The notes below the pieces were generated by a model. It searched no databases, was not told the origin of the DNA, and saw only the letters and a program-made list of their open reading frames with translations. Below, piece after piece: positions 6,112 to 20,000 of a DNA stretch of 20,000 nucleotides. Source of the stretch: an uncultured virus (IMG/VR IMGVR_UViG_3300046516_000137) (Duplodnaviria; Heunggongvirae; Uroviricota; Caudoviricetes); IMG/VR virus record IMGVR_UViG_3300046516_000137. One strand, written 5' to 3'. Position 1 is the stretch's first letter, and each line of letters starts with the position of its first letter. A program made the translations under genes and the position numbers.

Positions 6112-6158
6112 AAAGAAGCCCTCAGTCCTTGTATAAGGAAAGAGGGCTTCTTTTATTT
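6112..6158 (+). terminator. Intrinsic terminator (possibly bidirectional)
   Basis: AAAGAAGCCCTC / GAGGGCTTCTTT 12 bp stem followed by TATTT. Confidence 0.85.
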
Positions 6159-6992: not shown

Positions 6993-7021
6993 TTGACACG
7001 CCTCCCTACGTAGACAAGTGT
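6993..7021 (+). promoter_or_regulatory. Putative early promoter
   Basis: TTGACA-17 nt-AAGTGT (compare TAGTGT at 14051); imperfect -10. Confidence 0.5.
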
Positions 7022-7026
7022 GTGTC

Positions 7027-7365: not shown

Positions 7366-7373
7366 GAGAGACC

Positions 7374-7631: not shown

Positions 7632-7633
7632 TC

Positions 7634-7798
7634 ATGATCCTTGTTGAACTGACCAGGGAACAGCGCAAGTTCATCGCAGAGGCCACTCAGACCCGTATGG
7701 ATGCCATTCTGGCGAAGGACAGCAACGCATGGACCACAAGCGAGTATGCGGAGCTGGAAAGCCTTATGACGCAGTTGTATGTGGACTGCGCCGAATAG
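7634..7798 (+). CDS. Hypothetical protein (54 aa, MILVELTREQRKF...)
   Basis: ORF track 7583..7798, start at ATG 7634 after GGAG. Confidence 0.75.
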   Translation: MILVELTREQRKFIAEATQTRMDAILAKDSNAWTTSEYAELESLMTQLYVDCAE

Positions 7799-7800
7799 TA

Positions 7801-7872
7801 CTGACCTAGACCCGAAACGCTCTGTATGGAGCGTCTAGCCCTAGTGGAGGGCTACTGACGATGGGTCGTCAG
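7801..7872 (+). ncRNA. Type II hammerhead ribozyme
   Basis: GACCC-GAAA-CGCTC(tgtatg)GAGCG-TC^-TAGCCCT(agtgg)AGGGCTA-CTGACGA-T-GGGTC; complete catalytic core, three stems, GUC cleavage triplet. Confidence 0.9.
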
Positions 7873-7891
7873 GGAACAGAGGAGACAGACC

Positions 7892-8710
7892 ATGATCTAC
7901 ACCAGCAAGCACATCGGCGACAACGGCAGCAAGTCCAAGGTTCACGCGATGCCCGATGACAGTGTTGACGGGCACAAGGCGAAGTGCGGTCGCAAGGTGC
8001 AGTGGCTCAACAATGGTCTGTATGGCACTGACCATGAGATCACCTGTCTCCCCTGCATCAAGGTCATGGAGCGTGAGGATCGGGAGGCGAACACTGACAA
8101 GTTCATCGCCGAGTCGGATGCCCGCTTGGCTGCTGCGGGTATTAGCACTGAGGGAGAGAACATGCGCATTGTCGGCATTCAGAACTACAGCGGTGAGAAC
8201 GTGTTCACCTGTACCAACTGTGTTGCCAGTAGCTCATGGGCACGGGATGTGTTCATGGGTGAGGATGTCGTGTGCTGCACATGTGGTGAGATGCTCGGTT
8301 ATGCGGCTGATTTCAGCGCCGCGATTCGGGAGGACAAGGGTCGCAAGCTTGTTGCTGAAGAGGACCGTTGGTACATGCTGGACAAGGCTCATGGAGAGGC
8401 ACTGAAGATGAACAGTGATCTGTACATGCTGGCGCTGGCAGAGCGTCATGAGACCATCACGGACAACCGGCTTTACCACACTCCGCTGAATCGCTGGGAA
8501 TACCACATTCGCGGCCTGTACGTCTCTCTGCAAGCCATTCCGGTTATCGACTGGGTTTGCTACAGGGTGACTAAGTCGGGCAATCCCAGTAAGTCATACG
8601 AGACATACGACCTTGTGGACGCCATTGCCACGTATGAGGCCATGATCGGTGAGCACATGCACTGGCTTGAGGTCGACAGGCTTGACCGTGAGTGGCACTA
8701 CTCGCACTAG
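7892..8710 (+). CDS. Multi-module Cys-rich hypothetical protein (272 aa) with N-terminal H-CG-CxxC zinc finger
   Basis: GAGGAG RBS; KVHA...AKCG...TCLPC; CTNC...CCTCG. Confidence 0.85.
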   Translation: MIYTSKHIGDNGSKSKVHAMPDDSVDGHKAKCGRKVQWLNNGLYGTDHEITCLPCIKVMEREDREANTDKFIAESDARLAAAGISTEGENMRIVGIQNYSGENVFTCTNCVASSSWARDVFMGEDVVCCTCGEMLGYAADFSAAIREDKGRKLVAEEDRWYMLDKAHGEALKMNSDLYMLALAERHETITDNRLYHTPLNRWEYHIRGLYVSLQAIPVIDWVCYRVTKSGNPSKSYETYDLVDAIATYEAMIGEHMHWLEVDRLDREWHYSH

Positions 8711-8775
8711 ACTTGCCTCTTTAGCCATGCTGTGTGCCTCTGTATGGGGTTCACAGCGTGACTATGGGAGTATGT
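8711..8775 (+). other. Intergenic CUU/UGG hairpin (candidate mRNA processing site)
   Basis: CTT-TAGCCATGCTGTG...CACAGCGTGACTA-TGG. Confidence 0.7.
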
Positions 8776-8810
8776 CTGTACTCTCTGTCCAAAACCTCTT
8801 AGGAGACGAT

Positions 8811-9071
8811 ATGCCGAAGTGTGTTCTCACGTACCTTTTCACTGATGTGACCGGTGCCCAGGATGAGCAGGAGGAGATGGTTTTTGAGGGGGCGACTGCT
8901 GAGGATGTCTTTCAGCAGGTAGTTGCTGATCTCGATCGCACGGCTTCCCAGGATTTCAGCGATGCTGTGCAACTCGCATGGGTGGACGACTTCCATCACC
9001 AGGGCTTCCATTTCACTGTGGCCAACGACAGTGAAGGCATGACTGCCTACCGGTACCACTATATGGACTAG
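8811..9071 (+). CDS. Acidic hypothetical protein (86 aa)
   Basis: AGGAGA RBS before ATG 8811. Confidence 0.8.
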   Translation: MPKCVLTYLFTDVTGAQDEQEEMVFEGATAEDVFQQVVADLDRTASQDFSDAVQLAWVDDFHHQGFHFTVANDSEGMTAYRYHYMD

Positions 9072-9134
9072 TACTTACCCCTTCCCTGCCTCTGAGCGGC
9101 GTTCTGAGCGCTTCTCAGGGGATGGGTGGGAGTA
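9072..9134 (+). other. Intergenic hairpin, CCC/UGG variant
   Basis: ACCC-C-TTCCCTG...CAGGGGA-T-GGGT; same single pyrimidine-pyrimidine mismatch geometry. Confidence 0.5.
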
Positions 9135-9173
9135 TGTCCCAACTGTGTTGTTCGATCTTGTTAGGAGACAACT

Positions 9174-9647
9174 GTGTCCCTCTACACTGTCCGCTCGCGT
9201 GTCAGCCTCACTGGTAAGCCCATTCTGTCCAGCAAAATGGATGAGCAGGACCCTGCCAGCATGCCCGTGCCGCTCGAATTCAAGAGTGCGATGGAAATGC
9301 TGCACTGGTCACTAGCTAATGGTGTATTCGGTCGTGAGTTCTACGCCAATCGCTCTCCCCGCACTCCTGAGGAGATCCGTCTCCGTGATGGAGGGGACGA
9401 ATGGCGTGCCTATCGGGTAAGCGGTGACTGGCCTAAGTGGGAGCTGACCAACGAGAACTATGACGCCATGGTGAGTGCTGCCAAGCGTTACCGTGCGATC
9501 CTCCACTACTTCCGCGAGATTGAGCCTGAGTGGACGTACGTGGAAACCATTCACTACGCGGACAACAGCACCGTGGTTTACGAGATCAATCGCAATGGAC
9601 AGATGCGCTCGCACATGACTGTCTCTCCGCACGGTGACATCTGCTAG
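9174..9647 (+). CDS. Hypothetical protein (157 aa)
   Basis: GTG start with AGGAGA RBS. Confidence 0.8.
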   Translation: MSLYTVRSRVSLTGKPILSSKMDEQDPASMPVPLEFKSAMEMLHWSLANGVFGREFYANRSPRTPEEIRLRDGGDEWRAYRVSGDWPKWELTNENYDAMVSAAKRYRAILHYFREIEPEWTYVETIHYADNSTVVYEINRNGQMRSHMTVSPHGDIC

Positions 9648-9705
9648 TAACAGAACTCTTTGGGCATTCTCAGACTCTCTGAGTGTGTCCATGGGGGATT
9701 GTTGC
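9647..9705 (+). other. Intergenic CUU/UGG hairpin
   Basis: GTAACAG..CT-CTT-TGGGCATTCTCAGA ctc TCTGAGTGTGTCCA-TGG-GG..TTGTTGC. Confidence 0.7.
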
Positions 9706-9743
9706 CCCGACCCTGTTTCAACGTCGCAGAGGAGCACACAGCC

Positions 9744-10043
9744 ATGAACAACGCTGCCGCATTCCGCATGCTTGAGGGACGTCTCTCCGCACATGTCCAG
9801 CGGTTCAACGGCTATGACGTGAGCGCCAATGACTCCGATGAGCAGTATTTCCTTACCACGGAGAAACTGGCACTTGCCAAGGCTGCATTGGAGAGTGCCC
9901 CGGCATTCAAGGTCACGACGCTTGCCCGTTCGTTGGGTGATATCTACCGGACTGTCAAGCACAGCATGAGCGCTGCTGACCTCAAGCGCTGGAATGAGAT
10001 CAATGAGACGTTGGAAGCTCTCTCGGACAAGTACGAGGGATAG
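9744..10043 (+). CDS. Hypothetical helical protein (99 aa)
   Basis: GAGGAG RBS before ATG 9744. Confidence 0.8.
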   Translation: MNNAAAFRMLEGRLSAHVQRFNGYDVSANDSDEQYFLTTEKLALAKAALESAPAFKVTTLARSLGDIYRTVKHSMSAADLKRWNEINETLEALSDKYEG

Positions 10044-10104
10044 CAGCGGAAACGTCAGCCAAGACAGCACAACGACACACACATCCGTCATGAAAGGACA
10101 CATC

Positions 10105-11502
10105 ATGTCTGTCACCTCACTCACTGCCAATGAACTCACCGCCATGCTGTCCAGGATGACCTACTCCATGATTGGCAAGGGAAAGGCTATCCACCTGTCC
10201 AAGGCGGGAACCACCATGTGTGGCAAGTCTGTGGACCTGCACACAGTGAATCCGTCAGACTACCCCGCTTATGACATCTGCAAGCGGTGCATGACCACTG
10301 CTGAGAAGAACTACCGCATGGAGCGCAAGATTTCCTACGGTGTCATGCGTGATGAGGAGTTGGACCGCATGACCTACGGTGGAAAGCCTTTCACTAAGGC
10401 TGAGGAAAAGGCTGCAATTGAGGACGCGATGCAGTATGCGGGAAGGACGACCAATGCGGATATCGCCATTCTCACCGCAGACGGATTCGTTGAGTGCACT
10501 CCCGAAATTCTGGAGAGCGCGCTGAATGGGCTTGTCACACCTAAGCGTGCCTGTGAGTGCTGTGGCACGGAGACAGAGGACTTCGGCGCTCCTGAGGTAC
10601 TCATGTGTGAGCCGTGCGAGGAGCGCCACTGTGAGGCTGATGGACAGTGCTCCTCTGGTGATGCTGACAAGGACCCTGACATTCAGGTGATGCGTCAGTT
10701 GTTCCCTGAGTATTCCGATGAGCAGATTCGGGAGATTCTTGACCGTCCCGAATTCTCTTACCCGAATGAGAACGACTATGCGGATGCTGACGCATTCGAG
10801 TCTGGAATTCGAAATGCCAATGACACAGCGCGGGAAGAGGGATTTGCTGTCTCTTCCCCTGAGTGGCTGGACTGCTTTCAGCGTTCCTATGAGTCCATGC
10901 ACATTGAGAATGAGGACCGACGCATCAATGCCGCATTTGAGGCAGAACAAGATGCCGAATTGACTGCACTTGACGCTGAGTACGACCGTCAGCAGCACAA
11001 TCCCATGGATGAGCGGCACGAGGAATATCTTGTGACGTATCCCTACATGGTTGGGGAGAATCTCGTGTACGCGTGCTGTGAGTCGTCCATCGGTCCTGTC
11101 TGTGAGCATCTGCGTGATGTGTCTGAGGAGTGGCACGTATTCGCCATGGGTGAATGGCACTCCATGATGTACGAGGGTTACGCGCCGATCTGCATTCTCA
11201 TTGACGGTATTTACCAGGATGTTGATTATCGTCATCACGCTGGCGATTGCAACAACATGTGTGTCCTGGGTGATGAGACTCCGATGGAAGACACCATGAA
11301 TGCTCCCGAAATGGTGGAGGCGCGTCTGTCCATTGAGGTTGACGGAATCACGGTTGATCTCGGATTCCACACATTCGAGATTCCCCCGCTGTGTGAGAAG
11401 TCCATTGCGACTCTCTACGGAGAGAAGTATGGGGAATGGAAGCGTCCCGGCATCGTTGAGTGGGATGACGTGCTGACTGTCACAGAGCAGTACGCACTTT
11501 AG
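10105..11502 (+). CDS. Large acidic, Cys-rich modular hypothetical protein (465 aa) with N-terminal H-CG-CxxC zinc finger
   Basis: GAAAGGA RBS before ATG 10105; AIHL...TMCG...ICKRC; CECCG...CEPC; ACCESSIGPVCEH. Confidence 0.85.
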   Translation: MSVTSLTANELTAMLSRMTYSMIGKGKAIHLSKAGTTMCGKSVDLHTVNPSDYPAYDICKRCMTTAEKNYRMERKISYGVMRDEELDRMTYGGKPFTKAEEKAAIEDAMQYAGRTTNADIAILTADGFVECTPEILESALNGLVTPKRACECCGTETEDFGAPEVLMCEPCEERHCEADGQCSSGDADKDPDIQVMRQLFPEYSDEQIREILDRPEFSYPNENDYADADAFESGIRNANDTAREEGFAVSSPEWLDCFQRSYESMHIENEDRRINAAFEAEQDAELTALDAEYDRQQHNPMDERHEEYLVTYPYMVGENLVYACCESSIGPVCEHLRDVSEEWHVFAMGEWHSMMYEGYAPICILIDGIYQDVDYRHHAGDCNNMCVLGDETPMEDTMNAPEMVEARLSIEVDGITVDLGFHTFEIPPLCEKSIATLYGEKYGEWKRPGIVEWDDVLTVTEQYAL

Positions 11503-11593
11503 AACGCCCGTAACAGCCCCTCTGCCGCTTGTACAGGGTGGAGGGGTCCCGTTGGTCCAACCACACAGTTTGATCTTGTTAGAGAGGCATACA

Positions 11594-11965
11594 ATGCAGT
11601 TCATCGTTACAGCACATCCTGAGGCATTCACTGACGTGGACGCTGCTCAGCAGTTCGCTGCGAATTTGGTCCGGGACACAGGAGAGACTCTCTATGTCCT
11701 TCCTGTCGGTAATCGGATGCCCGGTTTCAAGGTTGAGAACGTCGGAATCATGGTGACGTTGGAAGAGGGAGAGGAGACTGAGCAGACAGAGCAGGAATGG
11801 CAAAAGGAATTCGCCTCTGCTCTGGCAGTCGATATGAAGTTTGGTGGTGTGCCCAAGGCACGTGCTGTCAGGCTTTACCGTGATGCATTCCATTGCAGCC
11901 TTGCAGAGTCGCTTATGGCGATTGACATTGCAATCGGGGAACTGAATGCAGGAGAGGACATCTGA
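11594..11965 (+). CDS. Hypothetical protein with C-terminal ribosomal protein bL12-CTD-like helices
   Basis: GAGAGG RBS; KARAVRLYRDAFHCSLAESLMAID resembles K..AIK..R...G.GL.EAK..VE. Confidence 0.7.
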   Translation: MQFIVTAHPEAFTDVDAAQQFAANLVRDTGETLYVLPVGNRMPGFKVENVGIMVTLEEGEETEQTEQEWQKEFASALAVDMKFGGVPKARAVRLYRDAFHCSLAESLMAIDIAIGELNAGEDI

Positions 11966-12141
11966 TGGATGAACAGGACTATTGGGACAGCGTCCATGCC
12001 GAACAGGACGATAACGATTATTGGGGTGAGATGGACGCTGAAGCGGTATACGCAGAGGAAATGGAAATGCTGAATCGTCACGTTGCCAATTGCACAAAGG
12101 CAGAACGTGACGAATACTGCAAGATCTGCATGGAGTACTGA
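11965..12141 (+). CDS. 58 aa very acidic protein with H-x3-C...CxxC
   Basis: Manual translation; TGATG overlap, GGAGAGG RBS. Confidence 0.75.
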   Translation: MDEQDYWDSVHAEQDDNDYWGEMDAEAVYAEEMEMLNRHVANCTKAERDEYCKICMEY

Positions 12142-12142
12142 C

Positions 12143-12289
12143 ATGTGGAATATGCGTACATGTAGGTCTCGCCGAATTCGTGGGTGGCGAATTGTCCGTT
12201 GCTCCTACTTGGCTGACCATGTCCAGAGAAGCAAGTGGCACTGCGACAACACAAATACTGGCTACATTTGGCTAGTGCGAAAGAGATAG
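12143..12289 (+). CDS. 48 aa Arg-rich hypothetical protein
   Basis: GGAG RBS before ATG 12143. Confidence 0.6.
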   Translation: MWNMRTCRSRRIRGWRIVRCSYLADHVQRSKWHCDNTNTGYIWLVRKR

Positions 12290-12296
12290 AACAGAT

Positions 12297-12361
12297 CTGT
12301 ATGCCTTTAGGGGTGCTGTAGGGCTTTCTGAGAGCCTCGCAGCATCTCTATGGACAGACAG
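12297..12361 (+). other. Intergenic CUU/UGG hairpin
   Basis: CTT-TAGGGGTGCTG...CAGCATCTCTA-TGG with basal CTGT/ACAG. Confidence 0.7.
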
Positions 12362-12398
12362 TCCAGCCATAGTATGTAACAGCCTCAGAGGGGCCATT

Positions 12399-12482
12399 GT
12401 GTTCGTTCCTATGTTCATCGCGTCATTCAGCTTGGCCAGTGCTTACTACATCGGCCGTAACCACGGAAGGCAGGGGAAATGA
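12399..12482 (+). CDS. 27 aa single-TM micropeptide
   Basis: Manual translation (V)FVPMFIASFSLASAYYIGRNHGRQGK; GAGGGG RBS; ATGA coupling to the next ORF. Confidence 0.5.
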   Translation: MFVPMFIASFSLASAYYIGRNHGRQGK

Positions 12483-12583
12483 ATCCAGTACTGGAGTCTG
12501 TCCTGTATTACCTGGGCGCATGTGCAGTGACAGGAATTCTGTGGGCTATCGGTGTGACCCTGATCAGGAGGAGCGGGAAATGA
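12479..12583 (+). CDS. 34 aa single-TM micropeptide
   Basis: MNPVLESVLYYLGACAVTGILWAIGVTLIRRSGK; ATGA overlaps at both ends. Confidence 0.65.
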   Translation: MNPVLESVLYYLGACAVTGILWAIGVTLIRRSGK

Positions 12584-12819
12584 ATGCGTGGATTTACGAC
12601 GGATTCAAAGACCAGTATTTCTATGTGTGGGAGGGATTCATTGGCTACGTACGTGAGAACCCTGATCACACGTGGTCTGCCTGTGTGTGGTTGGGTGACG
12701 AGAAGATCAGCCTCAGCCATCCCAAAGAGTCCATGACAGAGGCCATGGTGTACGCTGGTGATGCCATGTGGGATTGGCAGAGCCAGTCTGAGAGGATGAT
12801 GTCTCGGCTGTACGTCTGA
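12580..12819 (+). CDS. Trp-rich hypothetical protein (79 aa)
   Basis: AGGAGG RBS before ATG 12580. Confidence 0.8.
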   Translation: MNAWIYDGFKDQYFYVWEGFIGYVRENPDHTWSACVWLGDEKISLSHPKESMTEAMVYAGDAMWDWQSQSERMMSRLYV

Positions 12820-12828
12820 CCAGCAGAG

Positions 12829-12857
12829 TTGACCAGAAGATGAAAGTTTGGTAGTCT
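12829..12857 (+). promoter_or_regulatory. Sigma70/HrdB-type promoter
   Basis: TTGACC-17 nt-TAGTCT with TG extension. Confidence 0.75.
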
Positions 12858-12902
12858 CTGGTATGTCGAAGCATTACCGTCGAAAAGCAGTTAAGTACTA
12901 AA

Positions 12903-12970
12903 AAACAAGATAGAGAGTTAGGGTTAAATGAATAAACCTTAACTCTCTATTTCTGTTTATCTTTTCTTTT
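12903..12970 (+). terminator. Long AT-rich hairpin with T-rich tail (terminator/attenuator or processing stem)
   Basis: ATAGAGAGTTAGGGTT / AACCTTAACTCTCTAT followed by TTCTGTTTATCTTTTCTTTT. Confidence 0.6.
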
Positions 12971-13024
12971 AGATTAAGAGAAAAACTCTTAGTTTAAATC
13001 AGAGGGTAAATAGGAGGAGAAAAG

Positions 13025-13222
13025 ATGTATTCCTGTTACATTCATTACGATAGTGGAAGAACCTCTAAACTGACTGAAATTGACAAGTTGGATGTTGATA
13101 AGATTATCTACAGTAAAGAGAACACTCAAATCATCACACAGCATTCTCCCAATGGAGATATAACTGTTATTGATATGAGTAAGGTTTACCTGATTGAATT
13201 TCTCTGGGAGGAAAAGAAGTAG
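13025..13222 (+). CDS. 65 aa hypothetical protein
   Basis: AGGAGGAG RBS. Confidence 0.8.
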   Translation: MYSCYIHYDSGRTSKLTEIDKLDVDKIIYSKENTQIITQHSPNGDITVIDMSKVYLIEFLWEEKK

Positions 13223-13458
13223 TGAAAAACTATAAGGTAAAGATTTATCTTAGTGATTTCTCTTTTACCATAACAGCAACCCTTAGTACAGAAGGAATAA
13301 GCCAACTACTTGATGCCATTTACAGTAACAGGACTAGTAAATGGAGAAAGAAGACAACCTTTACTGTTACATCCTCTGGTAGTGATCCCAGTTTTTCATT
13401 TCCTCTGGCAAATGTTTGTCTGATTGAGTTCTCTGAAGTTGTTGAAGGAGAGAAGTAA
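13222..13458 (+). CDS. 78 aa hypothetical protein, possible paralog of 13025..13222
   Basis: GTG start overlapping the stop; shared C-terminal V.LIEF. Confidence 0.75.
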   Translation: MKNYKVKIYLSDFSFTITATLSTEGISQLLDAIYSNRTSKWRKKTTFTVTSSGSDPSFSFPLANVCLIEFSEVVEGEK

Positions 13459-13667
13459 TGAGTACTGAAATTCCCGAGATTCCGTCATTTCCTCTGGATT
13501 TGGACGAATTCGAGATAGCAACTCTGTTGGATGCTCTTATTGAGTATCGCAATAAGGTTGGTTATGAGGAAGAGAGCAAGTACAACTACCGGGTACTCAG
13601 GCTATACACCAAGATTCGTAAGTTCCGTCAACTGACTCGTGAAATGGAAACTAATGAAAATGGGTGA
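13458..13667 (+). CDS. 69 aa hypothetical protein
   Basis: AAGGAG RBS, TAATG overlap. Confidence 0.8.
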   Translation: MSTEIPEIPSFPLDLDEFEIATLLDALIEYRNKVGYEEESKYNYRVLRLYTKIRKFRQLTREMETNENG

Positions 13668-13899
13668 CATTCCTGTTCCTCTGGTTCTCACAAGGGATCA
13701 GATCAGGTTGATCCGTGGTGCTCTGTTTGTCATCAATGACTCCTGCTTTAATTGGACCGTTGATATTGTCAAGGACATTGCAGAGGTTGTTGAACTGATC
13801 GATCATGCCGAAGACAGGGCAACAATCAACAACGCCAAGTTGGTAAAGCCTACACTCTGGCAAGAGATCATTGACTCACTCGCTTGGCCCTACCGCTAG
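13654..13899 (+). CDS. About 81 aa hypothetical protein
   Basis: ORF track 13639..13899; exact start uncertain (13654 or 13660). Confidence 0.7.
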   Translation: MKMGDIPVPLVLTRDQIRLIRGALFVINDSCFNWTVDIVKDIAEVVELIDHAEDRATINNAKLVKPTLWQEIIDSLAWPYR

Positions 13900-13905
13900 A
13901 CCCTG

Positions 13906-13949
13906 AAGACCCTCTAGAACGGCTAGAAATGGCCTCTAGAGGGTCTTTT
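13906..13949 (+). terminator. Intrinsic terminator
   Basis: AAGACCCTCTAGA / TCTAGAGGGTCTT 13 bp stem plus TT. Confidence 0.75.
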
Positions 13950-14027
13950 GCGTTACGGGTGGACTCTTGGACCAACTGAGGTCTGTGAGGCTCTCAGAGG
14001 GGCCGTAGAATCAGTTTGGTACAGGAC

Positions 14028-14056
14028 TTGACCTCCCTGCGGTCGGCATGTAGTGT
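14028..14056 (+). promoter_or_regulatory. Sigma70/HrdB-type promoter
   Basis: TTGACC-17 nt-TAGTGT. Confidence 0.75.
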
Positions 14057-14093
14057 TCTACTTGTCAGCAGGACGAGGGACGGGGTACATAGT

Positions 14094-14342
14094 ATGAATG
14101 ATCGTGAATTCCTGCTTAATCGGGAAAGCAATGCACCTATTGGTATCGGCTCAAATGCTGTTCTTGACCAGGAAGCCGACGGAACAGTCACTATCAAGGG
14201 CTTGACAATGTCCGAAGCCTTCATACTAGTTGTTGGTTTGGGCAGCATGTTCGAAAATGAGAGCATTAGCGCCACTACGGCGATTGCTGTTATAGATCTA
14301 AGAAATGCGCTGATGACAGTACTTGACACGGTGTACCCGTAG
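14094..14342 (+). CDS. 82 aa hypothetical protein
   Basis: ORF track 14016..14342; first ATG downstream of the promoter. Confidence 0.7.
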   Translation: MNDREFLLNRESNAPIGIGSNAVLDQEADGTVTIKGLTMSEAFILVVGLGSMFENESISATTAIAVIDLRNALMTVLDTVYP

Positions 14343-14393
14343 CGCAAGACTAGATACACCTAGGGTTTGAGACCTTAGAGAGTCTAGTGGATG

Positions 14394-14440
14394 CTTACCT
14401 TCTACAGGGACTGGCTAACTACCTCTCTGTAGCGGGTAAG
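14394..14440 (+). other. Intergenic CUU/CGG hairpin
   Basis: CTTAC-CTT-CTACAGGGA...TCTCTGTAG-CGG-GTAAG. Confidence 0.65.
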
Positions 14441-14461
14441 GAACTACTAGTGGAGGAAAAA

Positions 14462-14815
14462 ATGGCTGTAATCGTTGATCTGAATGACCAGGAAGACAAG
14501 TCGGATGGTTTCAATTCGATTCTGTCCCTTGTCCGTGACACATGGGACGACGCTGATCCCTGGGGTTCTGGAATTGCATTTCTGTACTGTCTGGCAGACG
14601 TGGTGTATGTAGAGGATGGGGAGATTCTTCCTGATTATTCTCCCTCTCCTATGCTGAATAACCGGCAGGATCTTGAGGATGAGGACACATTCATTACCTC
14701 TGAACTTCTGTACATGTTCGATGAGGGAATAGTGTCTATTCATGACATGGTGCAGATGTATGATTTCCTTTCGGAATTGGATGACGAGTTCCGAGAAATG
14801 GGTCTGAACTACTAG
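14462..14815 (+). CDS. Highly acidic 117 aa protein, candidate DNA mimic
   Basis: GGAGG RBS; hand count of 29 D/E versus 4 K/R. Confidence 0.8.
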   Translation: MAVIVDLNDQEDKSDGFNSILSLVRDTWDDADPWGSGIAFLYCLADVVYVEDGEILPDYSPSPMLNNRQDLEDEDTFITSELLYMFDEGIVSIHDMVQMYDFLSELDDEFREMGLNY

Positions 14816-14818
14816 TTT

Positions 14819-14884
14819 GTAATTCGGTTGAATTTCCTATTAGGGATAACTAAGTAATTCCTAATAGGTTATTCGGTGAATTAC
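14819..14884 (+). other. Long intergenic imperfect hairpin
   Basis: GTAATTC..GTTGAAT..CCTATTAGG / CCTAATAGG..ATTCGGT.GAATTAC. Confidence 0.6.
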
Positions 14885-14906
14885 CGACAAAGATATGAGG
14901 AGAATT

Positions 14907-15563
14907 ATGTCTTACGAAAGTGCATCTGTCATTAGTGCTGCTGAGTATCTTGACGAGTACTGCGAATTCGGTAACTGGCGCGATAAGGTCAACCTCAAGA
15001 CTCTGCGTATGTCTAGTATGACTGACTGCATTCTGGGCCAGGTTTACGGTGACTACAACGTGGCTGAGGCTGTTCTTAATCGGGCCTCTAGTGATGACGA
15101 GTGGGACAACGTTTCGGAGGCTTTCGAGTCTTTCCAGGATGCATGGATTGAGTATCTGAAGCCTTTCCAGAAGGATTCCCTTGTCACGGGTTCTGAGTGG
15201 ATTTATCAGAACATCAATGGACAGAATCCTGTTCGGCTGCATCACACTGTCATGCTTGGAACTGTTAATTATGTAGTGTTCTCGCATGTAGGCCAGGAAA
15301 TGCAGATTCGGACTGAGGCTGCTTTCCGCAAGACTTTCAAGCCTAAGCCTGAGATTGTCTACGTTGAGGGACAGCTTTATATTGGTAAGGACAAGGCTGT
15401 GCTTATGTATGGTGCCAAGATTTACTATGGCAAGCCAGGATTCTACTACCTCAATGACACTCTCTACGGTAGCCTAGAGTACTTTGAGAAGGAGCATGGT
15501 CCTCTTAAGCCCATTGAGGCAGTGAAGAATGACGGTAAGCCTGTTATTGCCAAGATTGGTTAA
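14907..15563 (+). CDS. Hypothetical protein (218 aa; W..KVNL..L.MSS...CILGQVYGDY motif)
   Basis: GAGGAG RBS before ATG 14907. Confidence 0.85.
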   Translation: MSYESASVISAAEYLDEYCEFGNWRDKVNLKTLRMSSMTDCILGQVYGDYNVAEAVLNRASSDDEWDNVSEAFESFQDAWIEYLKPFQKDSLVTGSEWIYQNINGQNPVRLHHTVMLGTVNYVVFSHVGQEMQIRTEAAFRKTFKPKPEIVYVEGQLYIGKDKAVLMYGAKIYYGKPGFYYLNDTLYGSLEYFEKEHGPLKPIEAVKNDGKPVIAKIG

Positions 15564-15653
15564 TTGCACCTGAGTTGTCATAGGAAATCCCTTCGTTGTG
15601 CGGAGTGTGTTCCTATGATTTCTCTGGCCCAATTAATTAAAAGGAGATATGTA

Positions 15654-15839
15654 ATGGAAAAGCTCATTGTTGTTCTATTGACTCTGGTCGCCATGGTTGC
15701 ACTTGACGGATATCTCGTCATGATTGGAATGAATGCTTCCGGGCACAATATCAGTTACGAGAACGCTTGTGTAATCGGTATTGCTATCACTGGTCTCATT
15801 GGTTCCGGATCTTACAAGGGAACTACAGCCTCTAAGTAA
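15654..15839 (+). CDS. Small membrane protein (61 aa, two hydrophobic segments)
   Basis: AAGGAG RBS before ATG 15654. Confidence 0.8.
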   Translation: MEKLIVVLLTLVAMVALDGYLVMIGMNASGHNISYENACVIGIAITGLIGSGSYKGTTASK

Positions 15840-15889
15840 TTCAGCTTTAATCGTTTTCACTCTGTGAAAGCGGTTATGGTCCAGTTACT
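15835..15889 (+). other. Intergenic CUU/UGG hairpin
   Basis: AGTAATT..AG-CTT-TAATCGTTTTCAC tct GTGAAAGCGGTTA-TGG..AGTTACT. Confidence 0.75.
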
Positions 15890-15899
15890 AAGGAGAATA

Positions 15900-16301
15900 A
15901 TGTACAAGCTTACTGCTCAGGACATGGATCAACTGTGCTCCAATGGCGCGAATTGGGGAGAATGGGCACGCGTTCAGCAGGATGAGGATGGACGCTGGGA
16001 TGTCATGGGAGAGACTGGTGAGGAAATCAACTATGATTTCAAACACGCTCACTGGCTTGAGGACAATTGGGCGAATGTTGTGCTTGCCAAGATGTTTCTT
16101 GATCAGGAGGGTTACACCTATCAAGTTCTCTACGACAATGCAGACAACACTTCGGGGTGGTGGTTTGAGAGGCTGCACCACGTCTCAGAGCGCATCTCAG
16201 CCACTGCGGAGGGTCGGGTGGCACTCCTGGAACTTGCAGAGATGCTGAGGCGTCAGAACACCGGTTACGTGATTCTGACGGACTTCTCTCGCATCCGTTG
16301 A
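15900..16301 (+). CDS. Hypothetical protein (133 aa)
   Basis: AAGGAG RBS before ATG 15900. Confidence 0.85.
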   Translation: MYKLTAQDMDQLCSNGANWGEWARVQQDEDGRWDVMGETGEEINYDFKHAHWLEDNWANVVLAKMFLDQEGYTYQVLYDNADNTSGWWFERLHHVSERISATAEGRVALLELAEMLRRQNTGYVILTDFSRIR

Positions 16302-16326
16302 CAGATCACTAGGAACCAGCTAGGTT
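16298..16326 (+). promoter_or_regulatory. Sigma70/HrdB-type promoter, likely giving a leaderless mRNA
   Basis: TTGACA-17 nt-TAGGTT; ATG 16333 lies 6 nt downstream of the -10. Confidence 0.75.
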
Positions 16327-16332
16327 GGAGCT

Positions 16333-16638
16333 ATGGAAGAGATCGCAGTACGGGAGTACCGGATTTGGCTTGAGACTGGTGACCTCATGGGTTGTGCCAG
16401 TATCTATAAGCGTCGTGCATGGTGGACTGTAGAACTTGATCCGTTCTTGCATGCTGAGAAAGTCAGGACTAAGGGCTTCCGCAGTGAGTCAGAGGCTGAT
16501 AGCTTTGCACAGGAGACAGCTGAGAGGTACATGGCTGAGGCTATCGAGTGGGAAAAGAACCACTGCAAGGAAATGGGCTGTGAAGATGACCATGACTACG
16601 CAGAGGCATACAGTATTCAGATAGTTGAGGGAGAGTAG
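16333..16638 (+). CDS. Hypothetical protein (101 aa)
   Basis: ORF track; promoter-proximal start. Confidence 0.8.
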   Translation: MEEIAVREYRIWLETGDLMGCASIYKRRAWWTVELDPFLHAEKVRTKGFRSESEADSFAQETAERYMAEAIEWEKNHCKEMGCEDDHDYAEAYSIQIVEGE

Positions 16639-16640
16639 AT

Positions 16641-16778
16641 ATGCATATGATTCTGTCGCACAGGCGAATCTTCGGAATCAATTTCATTAAGATTCTGTCC
16701 GTGGAAAGGGGTGTACTATTCGCTATCTGTCCCGGATCACGTGAGGCAGCAGAGCGGTACGCACTGTCAGATAGCTAG
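16641..16778 (+). CDS. 45 aa hypothetical protein
   Basis: Manual translation; GAGGGAG RBS. Confidence 0.55.
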   Translation: MHMILSHRRIFGINFIKILSVERGVLFAICPGSREAAERYALSDS

Positions 16779-16830
16779 AAAGCTTTACTGATTCAGGGCT
16801 TGAAATCCTTGGATCGGTATGGTTTCCTAG
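16775..16830 (+). other. Intergenic CUU/UGG hairpin
   Basis: AAAG-CTT-TACTGATTCAGGG...CCTTGGATCGGTA-TGG-TTT. Confidence 0.75.
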
Positions 16831-16859
16831 ACACAGGAAACAGACCAGAGGGAGTTAAG

Positions 16860-17120
16860 ATGACTGAGCTTGAGATGATGACGCGCGTTGCTGTTCACCC
16901 GCTTGTCGTTAAGTACCGTGGAATGGTTGAGGCCTACCGTAAGCGCATGATTGAGCAGTACGGTGAGGGTTTCGATGGAGAGTGGACTGACGTGCATACT
17001 CCGGACAACCGTGGATTCACTGTCATGACTGAGGGACAGCGAGCTGAGTACAACAGTCTCCATGAGCACTGTGCGCGTGTCCGTGCCTCTGTCCGTCGTA
17101 CTCTCTTCCCCACTACCTAG
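16860..17120 (+). CDS. Hypothetical protein (86 aa)
   Basis: GAGGGAG RBS before ATG 16860. Confidence 0.8.
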   Translation: MTELEMMTRVAVHPLVVKYRGMVEAYRKRMIEQYGEGFDGEWTDVHTPDNRGFTVMTEGQRAEYNSLHEHCARVRASVRRTLFPTT

Positions 17121-17132
17121 AAAGGCATTCTG

Positions 17133-17342
17133 ATGGACTTCACTACCTTTCCCCGATCTGACTCTGCCTACTCCGTTGTCGTTAAGCGGGGAGGGACTGA
17201 GTATGTCAGCTTCGGAAGTGTCTTCAATCTGACTAAGCGTGCGGCTGGACAGCTGACCCGTTCGCTTGCTAAGGTGGACACGCGGTACAAGAGCGCAAGG
17301 GTTCTCAAGAACACTACGGTTCGAAAGGCTGGTCTGCTCTAA
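17133..17342 (+). CDS. Basic hypothetical protein (69 aa)
   Basis: GAAAGG RBS. Confidence 0.8.
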   Translation: MDFTTFPRSDSAYSVVVKRGGTEYVSFGSVFNLTKRAAGQLTRSLAKVDTRYKSARVLKNTTVRKAGLL

Positions 17343-17512
17343 TGATGCGTGGCAAGTATCAGAGTGTAAAGAAGCGCAAGGCAAAGCTTTACCGGGGTCG
17401 GCAGCACGACTTTGACAAGGAGTATCGTCAGACCGGAAGGCGACGCTTCGTGGACCCTAAGTACGTTCACAGCGATATGCGAGAGGCTGACCTGTTTGAG
17501 GTTGATCTTTAA
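17342..17512 (+). CDS. 56 aa basic hypothetical protein
   Basis: Manual translation MMRGKYQSVKKRKAKLYRG...; TAATG overlap. Confidence 0.65.
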   Translation: MMRGKYQSVKKRKAKLYRGRQHDFDKEYRQTGRRRFVDPKYVHSDMREADLFEVDL

Positions 17513-17529
17513 ATCACTGCTCTAGTGGC

Positions 17530-17558
17530 TTGACAGGGTCAGTCTGGGAAGCTAGATT
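17530..17558 (+). promoter_or_regulatory. Sigma70/HrdB-type promoter
   Basis: TTGACA-17 nt-TAGATT; followed by a 5' hairpin GGTTCCTA/TAGGAACC. Confidence 0.8.
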
Positions 17559-17609
17559 GGTCCTATCAGGTTCCTAGCTAAGTAGGAACCAAGACAGAGA
17601 GGCAAGACT

Positions 17610-18266
17610 ATGGCTGCACGCAAGGCTGTTTCTGCTCCCACGCTTGACACTGACGTTCTGGTCAAGCTCTTTCAGATCGTTGAGTCCTTTGACTCGACTC
17701 AGGAGAATCCCACAGGCACGACTGAGATTGCAGAGGAGAATGGCACGACTCCGACTGACACGTTCAATCTGTTGGGTATGCTGGCAGACGCGGAACTGAT
17801 TGACTCTGTCGGTCGTGGCCTTAACACTGAGTGGTTCATCAGTGTCCCGGATGTCTCTGCCGAGAATGCTGAGAGTGTGGCACGTGAGGCTCTGACCAAC
17901 TTCACTCCTGAGACTCCGAAGCCTGCCACTAAGGCCATTCCTAAGCCTGAGAAGGCTATCGAGTCTGTGACTGGCCTTACTCGTGAGCAGGTGGCTGAGG
18001 AGGTCAAGACTGTTCAGGTCGAGATTCCTCAGAACGCTGTTGATTTCCCGGGACTCATTTTCAATCTCAGCAGTGCACGTGAGAGTGCTACGAATGACCC
18101 TACTGGCTATGTTGTGCCCGATGAGGTTATTCTTCCGCCGCTTCCCAGTGGTGTGAATGAGAATACATGGGATCTCGCCCACAATGCTTTCAGCACCAAT
18201 GCGCGTGACACGTTCACTGCCCGACTGTTTTGGATGGAGCGGGCACGGGATCAGTTCGTTGCCTAG
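17610..18266 (+). CDS. 218 aa protein with N-terminal winged-HTH-like segment and Pro/Lys linker
   Basis: TTEIAEENGTTPTDTFNLLGMLADAELID..G...W pattern; AGAGAGG RBS. Confidence 0.7.
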   Translation: MAARKAVSAPTLDTDVLVKLFQIVESFDSTQENPTGTTEIAEENGTTPTDTFNLLGMLADAELIDSVGRGLNTEWFISVPDVSAENAESVAREALTNFTPETPKPATKAIPKPEKAIESVTGLTREQVAEEVKTVQVEIPQNAVDFPGLIFNLSSARESATNDPTGYVVPDEVILPPLPSGVNENTWDLAHNAFSTNARDTFTARLFWMERARDQFVA

Positions 18267-18314
18267 TTAGCTTTAATCGTCTATCGGAAACGGTAGTCGG
18301 TTATGGTCTACTAG
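18263..18314 (+). other. Intergenic CUU/UGG hairpin
   Basis: AG-CTT-TAATCGTCTATCG gaaa CGGTAGTCGGTTA-TGG. Confidence 0.75.
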
Positions 18315-18330
18315 TTGAAAGGCAAGACCA

Positions 18331-18546
18331 ATGGAAGATCTGTTTCTCCCCGACTTCTGGGCCGTTGTTTCCGGAAAAATGCGGAATGGACAGCGAAGGG
18401 GACAAGCCATATTCAATACGGCTTATGAAATGTTTCCTGAGGAAGTCAGATTTCTTGACGGAAGCCTGTATGACCCGTTCTATGATGACCGTAAGATTCC
18501 TGAGTTTCTGGAAAGACTGGCCGATAGGCTTACAAGGAGGAAGTAA
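18331..18546 (+). CDS. Hypothetical phage protein (R.GQA.FN...DPFYDD motif)
   Basis: GAAAGG RBS; ORF track. Confidence 0.85.
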   Translation: MEDLFLPDFWAVVSGKMRNGQRRGQAIFNTAYEMFPEEVRFLDGSLYDPFYDDRKIPEFLERLADRLTRRK

Positions 18547-18756
18547 ATGCGCTCTGGTGATGGTTTCGCTCTTGGTTTTCTCGCACTATTTCTTATCGTA
18601 ATGACTGGTCTCATTACTGGTGAGGTGACTCATGAGAATGACCAGCACACAGCATTCAAGCTGAAGTGTGGTCAGTCGAATGGAACAGTGACACAGACTC
18701 GCGACACTGATTTCTGTTTCAATGGCAATGTCCTTCTGTTCAAGATGGACTACTGA
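18547..18756 (+). CDS. Membrane-anchored protein with two-Cys C-terminal domain
   Basis: N-terminal hydrophobic helix; AGGAGG RBS. Confidence 0.8.
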   Translation: MRSGDGFALGFLALFLIVMTGLITGEVTHENDQHTAFKLKCGQSNGTVTQTRDTDFCFNGNVLLFKMDY

Positions 18757-18764
18757 GGAGAGAA

Positions 18765-19052
18765 ATGCGTAAGTGGACTTTTGGTGACTGGGTAGTATTT
18801 GCAGGATTACCTTCGTTAGTAGCAGCCTTTATTGTCCTATGTGTGTATTCGGCTATAACGGATACACATGCATTGGATAAGCAGTATAAGCAGCAACAGA
18901 AGCAAGAGCAGCAGTTCGCCAATACCTTCTATCAGCAGTGTATGAAGGCACATGGTGTCTATGATGTTGGCAGCAATGGTTACATCTGCTTTGGGGACGG
19001 TTCGATTCTATTCCAGAGCGGTTTCTCACAGGACATGAGTCCTAAGGGTTAA
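18765..19052 (+). CDS. Membrane-anchored protein with two-Cys C-terminal domain, paralog of 18547..18756
   Basis: N-terminal hydrophobic helix, Gln-rich stalk; GAGGAG RBS. Confidence 0.8.
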   Translation: MRKWTFGDWVVFAGLPSLVAAFIVLCVYSAITDTHALDKQYKQQQKQEQQFANTFYQQCMKAHGVYDVGSNGYICFGDGSILFQSGFSQDMSPKG

Positions 19053-19102
19053 AACAAAGAATCCCCTCATTACTCTTTAACCAGAGTGGTGAGGGGATTC
19101 TT
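19051..19102. terminator. Bidirectional terminator between convergent units
   Basis: AAGAATCCCCTCATTACTCT / AGAGTGGTGAGGGGATTCTT stem with flanking A tract. Confidence 0.8.
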
Positions 19103-19203
19103 GCGTGTCGGGACGGAAGCTCTGAGAGGCTGTGTACGGCTGTGGGATATCAGGGTCAGTCTCCTTGTCCAGTGAGGTGACGAGAGGCTGTGAGAGGTGC
19201 CTT

Positions 19204-19368
19204 CTAGCCCTTTCCTGCCCCATGGTTGAACTCATGGGTGTGTATGGCTATCGCTTGGATCTGCTTACGGGCAGTCTCCTTGCTCTGAGGATGCTTACTG
19301 AATGTCTTGTCGGTTCCTTTATGGGCCGCGACATATCCACCCTTTACTTTTCTGACTTCATAGGGCAT
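19204..19368 (-). CDS. 54 aa basic hypothetical protein (MPYEVRKVKGGY...)
   Basis: GAAAGGA RBS before ATG 19368. Confidence 0.75.
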   Translation of the reverse strand: MPYEVRKVKGGYVAAHKGTDKTFSKHPQSKETARKQIQAIAIHTHEFNHGAGKG

Positions 19369-19373
19369 TCGGA

Positions 19374-19562
19374 CTATCCTTTCTGACAAGTGGCTGTTGA
19401 ACCCGTTGTAGGGCTCTGTGAGACGCTGTTAGAGGTCGGTTGGGGTGTTGTGTCCAACTGGCCACGAAAGGCACTCACAGACAGCGTTATGGCCACTGCT
19501 GCGACTATGGAGAGACCAGCGCTAGTGCATGTGCGCTTGTCCCAAATACGTTGAGGGGGCAT
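19374..19562 (-). CDS. 62 aa membrane-anchored protein with Ser/Thr/Pro-rich tail
   Basis: AGGAGA RBS; hydrophobic AGLSIVAAVAITLSVSAF. Confidence 0.7.
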   Translation of the reverse strand: MPPQRIWDKRTCTSAGLSIVAAVAITLSVSAFRGQLDTTPQPTSNSVSQSPTTGSTATCQKG

Positions 19563-19577
19563 TTAAATTCTCCTGTA

Positions 19578-19631
19578 AACGACAATAAGGCTACTCACCA
19601 TTTTACTCTGGTGAATAGCCTTACCGTTATA
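19578..19631 (-). other. Long intergenic hairpin (~20 bp)
   Basis: Minus strand ACGGTAAGGCTATTCACCA / TGGTGAGTAGCCTTATTGT with G-U pairs. Confidence 0.65.
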
Positions 19632-19636
19632 TTGAG

Positions 19637-19846
19637 TTACATATAGTCGATTTCGTCAAAAGTGATAGTGACCTTCTCGCCTGCCGCATAGGTACGGTAC
19701 CGATTGGTGTCGTCAAGCACATTGATTGCGCCCCACTGGTCAGGCTCATAGGAGTCAGAGTGGGCAGTGTATGTTCCCTTGGAATCCTGCACAGTGTCAC
19801 CCTTGCGAATCTCAGTGGGAGACTGACCAGTATACGTGGAAAGCAT
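19637..19846 (-). CDS. 69 aa hypothetical beta-rich protein
   Basis: GAAAGG RBS; ORF track. Confidence 0.75.
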   Translation of the reverse strand: MLSTYTGQSPTEIRKGDTVQDSKGTYTAHSDSYEPDQWGAINVLDDTNRYRTYAAGEKVTITFDEIDYM

Positions 19847-19869
19847 TGTAAAACCTTTCGTAATCGAGA

Positions 19870-19936
19870 CCAGCCACTCAGCTAGCCATAACCACCTAAG
19901 GTTTCCCTCAGATGATTAAAGCTATCTGAATACTAG
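19870..19936 (-). other. Intergenic CUU/UGG hairpin on the minus-strand transcript
   Basis: Minus strand TAG-CTT-TAATCATCTGAGG gaaa CCTTAGGTGGTTA-TGG-CTA. Confidence 0.75.
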
Positions 19937-19942
19937 CTGAAC

Positions 19943-20000
19943 ATGTACCAAGTGCCATTGAGATAAGTCACGGACATTCCCTCATTCGCACTTGGTACAT
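19943..20000. repeat. Perfect 13 bp inverted repeat (may extend beyond the window)
   Basis: ATGTACCAAGTGC ... GCACTTGGTACAT. Confidence 0.7.

Follow-up and report, generated by a model that had tools for sequence, protein, structure and literature searches.

We analysed a stretch of 20,000 nucleotides (nt; hereafter the window) from an uncultured virus of the Caudoviricetes (IMG/VR record IMGVR_UViG_3300046516_000137), and within it a family of hairpins, built around a CUU/UGG core, that lie between consecutive small genes. The closest relative is a 112,630-base viral contig (G001 = G002), to which window positions 1-19989 match in blocks at 89-99% identity. In its terminase, this relative shares 79% identity with Streptomyces phage BRock (genus Borockvirus) and 78-79% with four other Streptomyces myophages, among them GiJojo, given as a cluster BS myovirus in an excerpt of PMC11465772. 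It also codes for contractile-tail and baseplate proteins, DNA polymerase A, RecA and ThyX, and for cell-wall hydrolases with an actinobacterial transglycosylase domain. Judged from sequence, the window comes from a soil Streptomyces myophage of ~112 kb in the BRock group and is an ORFan-rich, early-type part of its genome. From ~7300 onward it holds some 25 small open reading frames (ORFs); searches of 25 window ORFs against Pfam and PHROGs gave one sub-threshold match to a domain of unknown function and nothing else, and a collection of named phages contained no counterpart of the window, either by DNA or by its largest ORF (465 amino acids, aa).

Hairpins between the small genes

The original prediction had listed at least nine intergenic hairpins with a shared internal motif. 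All ten of the sites that it named fold as long imperfect stems (z of -3.35 to -7.24 against shuffled sequences), and none of 200 shuffles folded as well at nine of them (one of 200 at 9069-9145). Only seven, however, are members of one family by covariance model R2, which was trained without the window or its 97% identical relative and returned seven window copies at E values of 1.5e-13 to 0.0027, the next match having an E value of 0.46. The hairpins at 9072, 14394 and 7311 gave no match to R2, or to a second model R1, at E <= 10. The window family thus has seven members, plus three hairpins in or near equivalent slots:

8707-8779, plus strand: family hairpin, long form; fold -36.2 kcal/mol, z -6.0; R2 18.2 bits, E 0.0013; stop codon TAG 8708-8710 in the lower stem, core CUU 8719-8721 / UGG 8765-8767
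9646-9706, plus strand: family hairpin; z -4.63; R2 17.2 bits, E 0.0027; stop codon TAG 9645-9647, core CUUU 9658 / AUGG 9694
12293-12365, plus strand: family hairpin, long form CUUUAGGG...CUCUAUGG; z -4.14; R2 22.6 bits, E 5.5e-5
15833-15891, plus strand: family hairpin, tight class AGCUUUAAUC...GGUUAUGG; z -7.24; R1 59 bits, R2 35.6 bits; stop codon TAA 15837-15839 in the lower stem
16771-16834, plus strand: family hairpin; z -4.88; R1 57.6 bits, R2 44.9 bits; stop codon TAG 16776-16778 in the lower stem (CUAG...CUAG)
18259-18318, plus strand: family hairpin with GAAA loop; z -5.32; R1 64.6 bits, R2 46.4 bits; stop codon TAG 18264-18266 in the lower stem
19874-19933, minus strand: family hairpin upstream of gene 19846-19637; z -5.15; R1 68 bits, R2 49.9 bits
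9065-9139, plus strand: degenerate variant in an equivalent slot (stop codon TAG 9069-9071), non-member by the models; z -3.35
14384-14450, plus strand: fully paired GCUUACC/GGUAAGG hairpin with no U×U mismatch, non-member by the models; z -4.04
7297-7367, plus strand: hairpin with a 2x2 UU/UU internal loop, a second type, upstream of gene 7374, no model match; z -3.42
14816-14890, plus strand: intergenic hairpin of the UU/UU type, absent from the original prediction; -28.1 kcal/mol, z -5.48
15564-15625, plus strand: intergenic hairpin without the CUU/UGG core, likewise absent from the original prediction; -24.3 kcal/mol, z -6.25

Four of the sites (15834, 16772, 18260 and, on the minus strand, 19876) had been said to share AGCTTTA...TATGG; they do, and they form a tight class that scores 57.6-68 bits with R1. 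In the degenerate variant at 9072, CUU...UGG is kept and the inner stem is broken. A candidate hairpin at 11503-11560 was rejected, being no different from shuffles (z -1.28).

Two counts were made without the models. The pattern CTTTA-N14-44-TATGG has nine matches in the window versus 0.90 expected (no shuffle of 200 reaches nine), and six of the nine are intergenic hairpins. In a census in which every window stem of at least 9 bp was taken irrespective of sequence and its flanking tetramers were tabulated, CTTT/ATGG was the top flank pair with six of 1063 plus-strand stems, while unrelated pairs never exceeded two; a seventh CTTT/ATGG stem lies on the minus strand at 19886. Matches to Rfam 15 at gathering score were seven tRNAs only, and over 6000-20000 no match at E <= 10 overlapped a hairpin.

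Covariation around an invariant core

A pattern scan of viral contigs for relatives of these hairpins returned 37 stretches, among which the true hairpins were those of contigs of ~111-113 kb and one of a 55-kb contig (G007). The relatives' hairpins have the AGCUUUAAUC...GGUUAUGG frame in common, with upper stems that are entirely different yet paired (89.4% of cells paired in 14 such sequences, versus 69.5% after shuffling). For model R2, stems of at least 10 bp with CTT on the 5' side and TGG on the 3' side were collected from six BRock-group genomes and the 55-kb contig, which gave 57 placements; 12 of these were dropped (weak fold, or no ORF end just upstream) together with a doubtful one at G003 19185, and 37 were aligned, the window's relative being excluded.

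In this alignment, which covers six other genomes, 88.4% of cells are paired versus 58.6% after shuffling, and the covariation score is 0.789, versus 0.215 for shuffled alignments and at most 0.194 when partners are slid. The pairs of the lower stem, which had no role in sequence selection (columns 5-8 with 78-81), are paired in 32-33 of the 37 hairpins, with 4-6 pair types each. Beneath a covarying upper stem stands an invariant core of a C-G pair, a U·G pair and a U×U mismatch (5' CUU / UGG 3'); the U×U flanked by U·G is present in all 37 aligned hairpins, where the selection rule required it, and also in the seven window copies. The fourth core pair covaries (U-A in 26, G-C in 6, C-G in 2, G·U in 2 and A-U in 1). 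The upper stem measures 12-16 bp in 43 of 45 hairpins, with a mode of 13, and upper stem, core and the 8-10 lower positions down to the stop codon together make about two helical turns, the mismatch lying near the middle. Covariation of the upper stems had been claimed from the window; the analysis confirms it and extends it to the relatives' hairpins. A direct case is the minus-strand copy at 19876, which differs from its counterpart in the relative's 91%-identical flank by a wholly replaced upper stem with pairing kept, and the hairpin at 16771 has a covarying copy at the homologous gene in G006.

The strand on which the hairpins would act can also be read from the folds. Mean fold energy is -30.3 kcal/mol for the sense strand and -18.5 kcal/mol for the antisense strand, with the sense strand more stable in 44 of 45 hairpins; G·U pairs number 4.2 per hairpin on average, and hairpin orientation always follows the flanking genes, on either strand. 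The original prediction had argued for a function at the RNA level, and the G·U pairs and the sense-strand stability back this; strand bias, G·U pairs and orientation fit RNA, and would also fit single-stranded DNA of the coding strand. Taking the evidence together, we consider it very probable that the hairpins are a real family of sense-strand RNA elements.

Loops of two types recur (for instance at window 16793-16802, G004 9618, G005 106515 and G008 34365), GAAA-type tetraloops and loops that contain CUUGA(C/A), which resembles a -35 hexamer. From a CUUGA(C/A) loop to TATGGT there are only 12 nt, so a promoter reading of these loops seems unlikely. A sigma-70-type promoter reading of CTTTA...TATGG(T) was likewise considered and rejected, because the spacing varies from 24 to 38 nt, with pairing kept throughout.

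Register with the upstream stop codon

In 45 of 57 cases a CUU/UGG stem follows a same-strand ORF (at least 40 codons) at a distance of 0-15 nt, versus a background of 9.1% for random positions. The distance from the last base of the stop codon to CUU is 3-5 nt in 26 of these 45 and exactly 4 nt in 16. The stop codons concerned are TAG in 28, TAA in 10 and TGA in 7, whereas genome-wide only 26-31% of crude ORF ends are TAG. Base pairing joins the stop codon to the 3' foot of the hairpin, UAG with CUA (giving CUAG...CUAG) and UAA with UUA; of 41 minimum-energy folds, 23 pair the whole stop codon, 13 pair part of it and 5 leave it unpaired. The stop codon lies inside the lower stem, an anatomical point that goes beyond the original prediction. 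Among the small genes of window positions 7300-19100, TAG is the commonest stop codon (~14 of 23 by eye), and CTAG is frequent near gene ends.

The published annotation of BRock agrees with this placement: over two stretches, all ten R2 matches abut or overlap the stop codon of a same-strand coding sequence, and the hairpins end 8-44 nt before the next annotated start, except where an ORF of 126 bases has been called inside a hairpin. That annotation lists none of the R2 hairpins of BRock. On the downstream side, the distance from UGG to the next start is often only 15-25 nt, and the ribosome-binding site (RBS) of the next gene lies downstream of the 3' foot. Masking of the RBS was rejected as a general feature since it is inconsistent: only 24 of 41 folds pair half or more of the site, often through small local folds outside the family stem. 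At G007 24760 the RBS is itself the 3' foot and is paired with CUUCCU directly behind the stop codon. A read-through signal at the stop codon was also considered and set aside; an in-frame TAG lies 10 codons past 18264 (one example, seen by eye).

Start regions behind the hairpins show some resemblance to each other. A conserved RBS motif behind the long hairpins, GATCTTGTTAGRG, was considered and rejected, having three matches versus 0.94 expected, no significant excess for the window. After the long-form hairpins comes a similar ...GATCTTGTTAGAGG-N-ATG stretch, RBS included, at window 9154-9166 and 11572-11584; the stretch recurs in relatives (G005 ~300, G006 ~94650) and is not significant in the window alone.

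Distribution among phages

The covariance-model scan that the original prediction had proposed was run on the relatives as well as the window. R2 copies in seven genomes number 52, with 7-10 in each 112-kb genome and two in the 55-kb contig. In the closest relative, six of the seven exact CTTT/ATGG hairpins lie within 87-97.4 kb, the region that corresponds to the window. The 55-kb contig belongs to a different phage, as its 95 ORFs include only four with a BRock-group match at E < 1e-5 (a helicase-like, a polymerase-like and a tail-fibre-like protein and one other), and none of the genes next to its hairpins has a counterpart in that group at E < 0.1.

A second pattern, which fixed only CTAG-N3-GCTTT...ATGG-N4-CTAG, returned 51 stretches with 38 loci outside the genomes already studied. 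Seventeen of these 38 loci, on 14 viral contigs of 7-113 kb, carried 20 R2 matches at E <= 1e-3. One of them (L259, a 59-kb viral contig with 59% G+C at the locus) has three family hairpins within 1.4 kb; there, each hairpin is followed by the same GAGAGGATGAGAGACGATG start region, and tandem small genes are each closed by a hairpin in a phage-like setting of higher G+C. In cellular genomes, the bare sequence pattern occurred in at least 120 stretches, of which 80 loci were scored; the best R1 score was 28.7 bits and none of the 80 was convincing, while phage copies score 57-69 bits.

The symmetric 2x2 UU/UU hairpins occupy the same kind of slot, recurring at window 7297-7367 and 14816-14890 and at G003 20625-20690. 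The G003 hairpin lies behind a homologue of the window's 218-aa gene, whose window copy carries a CUU/UGG hairpin.

Homology breaks at the hairpins

Homology between the window and its relative breaks at 8712/9066, 14059/14383, 14457/14819, 15637/15900, 16629/16770 and 18317/18536, and nine of the twelve end points are at most 12 nt away from a hairpin edge. The 8707-8779 hairpin and gene 8811-9071 are both missing from the relative. The 14383-14457 hairpin stands in the relative as a 75-base island of 97% identity between unrelated flanks. The 14 sequencing runs listed for window 8600-18400 are all DNA metagenomes. Metagenome contigs aligned to the window repeat these joints (run X5), and the same contigs show the 8706-8776 hairpin also with other flanks, as loose ends. 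A second, different joint for the 8811-9071 gene cassette, from 8764 to 9127, falls inside the 3' arms of the two hairpins with 12 letters shared (run X4); its contig has a depth of 2.1 and a shorter side of only 42 letters, which makes it weak evidence. As conserved repeats, the hairpins would be sites where ordinary recombination swaps ORFan genes. We take this to mean that they may double as joints for the gain, loss and swap of neighbouring genes between strains. Pfam scans of the relative's 196 ORFs found no recombinase, integrase or Y1 transposase, and the only nucleases were of the HNH and endonuclease VII types.

A hammerhead candidate in the same kind of slot

Between a stop codon (7796-7798) and the next start (7892) lies an element of another fold:

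7810-7872, plus strand: candidate type II hammerhead (RF02276)

It scores 32.1 bits against Hammerhead_II (RF02276), under the gathering score of 37, with an E value of 0.003. The CGAAAC, GUC and CUGACGA motifs and a 7-bp stem I are present, and one U is inserted between CUGACGA and stem II. The original prediction had pointed to a loop shared with the hairpin at 8711, and indeed the 10-mer CTCTGTATGG occurs exactly twice in the window (7820 and 8738, versus 0.07 expected), once in the hammerhead candidate and once in the loop of the 8707 hairpin. Its further proposal, that self-cutting and enzyme-cut elements are interchangeable, would rest on two cases. One is the window slot occupied by the hammerhead candidate; the other, a weak one, is an orthologous junction in G008, where a homologue (36% identical) of the upstream 54-aa gene is followed by a hairpin UUUA...UAUGG with a partial R2 match (E 0.0068). 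Conversely, the relative, which carries an orthologous copy of the hammerhead, is the only one of five genomes searched to do so; G003 gave E 0.6 and G004-G006 nothing.

Enzymes for RNA repair were also observed in the relative, namely a polynucleotide kinase-phosphatase, an RNA ligase (PF09414) and a T4 Rnl1-type ligase. Its positions 81553-82086 (about window 3818-4348) code for the HAD domain of 'Swiss army knife' RNA-repair proteins, and the counterpart of about window 4957-5538 in the relative codes for an Rv2179c-like 3'-5' exoribonuclease. RNA-repair enzymes process 2',3'-cyclic phosphate and 5'-OH ends, which are the ends that a hammerhead makes.

Possible transcription units and other features

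The hairpins had been described as lacking U tails, and this holds: the 8 nt after each of the 45 hairpins contain 0-3 T, the count for the window copies never exceeds 5 T in 10 nt, and a terminator scan flagged near the hairpins only sub-stems at 9127 and 12382. The family hairpins are not U-tailed terminators. Elsewhere in the window, U-tailed hairpins and promoter-like sites do occur, the pattern TTGAC-N17-20-TANNNT having ten matches versus 2.5 expected (none of 200 shuffles reaches ten):

13905-13949, plus strand: canonical hairpin followed by UUUU, read as an operon-end terminator
~6118-6150 and 12903-12958, with a weaker one at 19057-19102: other U-tailed hairpins
14028-14056, plus strand: host-type promoter-like site TTGACC-N-TAGTGT
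12829, 16298 and 17530, plus strand: further promoter-like sites
337-1231, minus strand: block of eight tRNA genes (two Gln, one Gly, two Met, one Phe, two Pro)
125, 1278, 1458, 1569 and 1655, minus strand: TTGAC...TANNNT promoter-like sites on the same strand as the tRNA block
2813-3223, plus strand: free-standing HNH endonuclease gene (relative's copy: Pfam HNH, E 3.7e-11)

Elsewhere, the relative has a second HNH gene and an endonuclease VII gene. On account of the promoter-like sites and the U-tailed hairpins, the region is read as several polycistronic units that the host would transcribe. The family hairpins would then lie between same-strand cistrons inside units with promoter-like and terminator-like borders.

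Possible processing of early messages

We propose that the hairpins are cis-acting RNA elements, transcribed within polycistronic messages of the early-type region, each of which would span an intercistronic gap and carry the stop codon of the upstream gene in its 5' foot. A helix of about two turns with a weak point in the middle could serve as a substrate for a factor of the host that acts on double-stranded RNA; RNase III (AbsB in Streptomyces) is the most probable candidate and would nick at or beside the mismatch. After such a cut, a protective 3' hairpin would close the upstream cistron, and the downstream one would acquire a 5' end of its own. We give RNase III-type processing, as in T7 early mRNA, a probability of about 0.42. 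In a T7-type substrate a helix of about 20-22 bp is expected, with a mismatch or internal loop near its middle, and the family shows both features. Substrates of the Escherichia coli enzyme typically comprise two helical turns, according to excerpts of PMC1540722, which also state that internal loops or bulges can restrict cleavage to one phosphodiester and that the 3' hairpin left behind blocks 3'-5' exonucleases. Family scans of the relative's 196 ORFs found no RNase III, no double-stranded RNA-binding domain (dsRBD) and no RNA-binding family of another kind. With the motif present in unrelated phages, and with neither RNase III nor a dsRBD protein found on the phage side, the reader is more likely to be a host factor than a phage protein.

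Several points weigh against processing by RNase III, which is itself inferred. The E. coli enzyme is described in the same excerpts as having no positive sequence determinants (PMC1540722), and a CUU/UGG core that is invariant across unrelated phages fits a sequence-specific binder better. An RNase III site needs no fixed register with a stop codon, and this register may hint at a role linked to the termination of translation. Cleavage in the stem's lower half could also strip the stop codon from the upstream message. In addition, the rule by which the 37 training hairpins were selected demanded CTT/TGG and a 10-bp inner stem, so that inner pairing and core invariance are partly circular.

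Since what is known of RNase III leaves the core and the stop register unexplained, two other models of an RNA signal are kept alive. The hairpins might be insulators that are linked to translation and never cut: with the stop codon in its foot, each stable hairpin would act as a barrier to 3' exonucleases and keep the cistrons apart, with no endonuclease involved; a terminating ribosome would melt foot and core, so that termination upstream would control the next start (coupling). This would suit a stop codon that is at least partly paired in most folds (23 fully, 13 partly and 5 unpaired of 41), the enrichment of TAG among hairpin stops (28 of 45 versus 26-31% genome-wide), the short distance of 15-25 nt from UGG to many of the next starts and the pairing of the RBS with CUUCCU behind the stop codon at G007 24760. 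A passive barrier, however, has no need of an invariant C-G/U·G/U×U core, masking of the RBS is not constant (at least half paired in only 24 of 41), and a hairpin of the 14384 type stands in the relative in a leader with no preceding ORF; we regard this model as unlikely. An invariant core with free stems is the usual mark of a sequence- and shape-specific binder, and the hairpins could instead be operators for a dedicated RNA-binding protein, of the phage or of the host and other than RNase III, which would read the CUU/UGG core and regulate translation or stability of the early messages. Most ORFs of the region have no known family, which leaves room for such a protein. A phage-encoded binder is nevertheless hard to square with the 55-kb contig, which has two good copies and only four BRock-group ORFs at E < 1e-5, with flanking ORFs unmatched in that group at E < 0.1, although short, fast-evolving proteins could escape such a comparison. 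Overall, operators of this kind seem somewhat less probable still than insulators.

The homology breaks raise the question of whether the hairpins act as DNA, as single-strand recombination hairpins that move ORFan cassettes in the manner of attC sites or REP/IS200-type elements. Conserved ends around a variable, paired middle with a mismatch and variable length, a position at the 3' ends of small genes of the same orientation, gene-sized insertions and deletions that stop at hairpin edges, the homology island at 14383-14457 and the second junction inside the arms would all be expected of such elements, and G·T pairs form in single-stranded DNA too. Against this, neither a tyrosine or serine recombinase nor a Y1/HUH transposase is found among the relative's 196 ORFs, ordinary homologous recombination between repeats would yield the same junctions, orientation always tracks transcription and the stop register has no reason at the DNA level, which makes a DNA-level element very unlikely. 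Even further down the scale we place intrinsic terminators without tails, or pause sites, that would grade transcription along the operon. The hairpins are stable, contain G-C pairs and stand directly behind genes, and terminators without U tails have reportedly been found in the early region of the actinophage phiC31. The family has no U tracts, while the unit ends of the region use U-tailed hairpins, a terminator after nearly every gene would starve the distal genes, and the conserved core would be left unexplained. Mycobacterial RNA polymerase, moreover, requires a U tract according to an excerpt of PMC3993855.

A wider scheme is offered here as speculation of low probability. The CUU/UGG hairpin would be a stop-registered punctuation signal common to unrelated actinophages and read by one host factor, at once an RNA segmenter or insulator of each small early cistron, placed where ribosomes terminate, and the standard joint for ORFan exchange between phages; the self-cleaving hammerhead would be an alternative plug-in for this slot, and the kinase-phosphatase and two ligases might treat the ends.

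Comparison with known systems

Our literature searches found no printed description of the family, and nothing on hairpins in BRock-group phages. The nearest likeness in placement and shape is with coliphage T7, whose early mRNA is cleaved by RNase III. For comparison, we folded the T7 intergenic regions 0.4/0.5, 0.7/1, 1/1.1 and 1.2/1.3, which we take to be the RNase III sites R0.5, R1, R1.1 and R1.3 (the T7 record does not annotate them). They form a family of related hairpins, with a conserved module shared by 0.4/0.5 and 0.7/1. Like the hairpins of the window, the T7 early sites (R0.3, R0.5, R1, R1.1 and R1.3) are related, intercistronic hairpins of about two turns with a central irregularity on an early message transcribed by the host; they end 20-30 nt before the next start, and in 0.4/0.5 and 0.7/1 the 5' foot contains or adjoins the upstream stop codon. 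They differ in that T7 copies keep their upper-stem sequence, whereas the phage family keeps only a core of 3 nt on each side under a covarying stem, and in that T7 has an asymmetric internal loop where the family has a single U×U beside U·G. The host is also an actinobacterium, unlike that of T7.

Among actinophage repeats, the family most resembles the extended start-associated sequences (ESAS) of Cluster K mycobacteriophages and yet fails membership. As presented in excerpts of PMC3203893, ESAS are imperfect inverted repeats with a variable spacer and a single orientation, which occur only in the half of the genome that lacks structural genes, directly before gene starts, with function unknown, traits that the present family shares; they have conserved 17-bp arms tied to the 13-bp SAS GGGATAGGAGCCC at the start codon (PMC3203893). 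Our family, by contrast, has covarying arms and is anchored on the upstream stop codon. Nor does the window show an excess of the SAS consensus (four matches with three mismatches, versus 4.5 expected), and the arms are not conserved in sequence.

Similar again are the promoter-early stem-loops (PeSLs) of T4-type phages and the linker sequences of lambdoid phages; these too are short intergenic repeats that border small early ORFan genes and at which related phages shuffle genes. PeSLs carry an early promoter, while the family hairpins have none, as the 24 to 38 nt spacing of CTTTA-TATGG indicates. Integron attC sites likewise follow cassette genes as imperfect, strand-specific hairpins in which the ends are conserved, the paired middle varies and some bases are unpaired; they differ from the present family in that no integrase is found among the relative's 196 ORFs, there are no R''/R' core sites and the context is that of a lytic-type myophage. 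The type II hammerhead candidate (RF02276) at 7810-7872 carries the conserved hammerhead core and occupies the same kind of slot as the family, in the order of stop codon, structure, RBS and start, but has another fold and would cut itself.

The family is best described as intercistronic RNA hairpin signals of phage early messages, with an unusual stop register and a spread across phage lineages. As a structured RNA motif it is well supported, its covarying examples number in the dozens and Rfam has no family for it. It occurs in phages of Streptomyces, whose gene expression is almost unstudied, and the stop register together with the homology breaks at hairpin edges offers a concrete handle on how phage ORFan genes are shuffled. 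If the hairpins are RNase III sites, they would be the first sequence-defined set of substrates for actinobacterial AbsB, which controls antibiotic production, and a compact insulator part for the design of Streptomyces operons. If they are both a punctuation signal and a joint for gene exchange, they would represent an RNA-selected counterpart of integron attC sites or of the PeSLs of T4.

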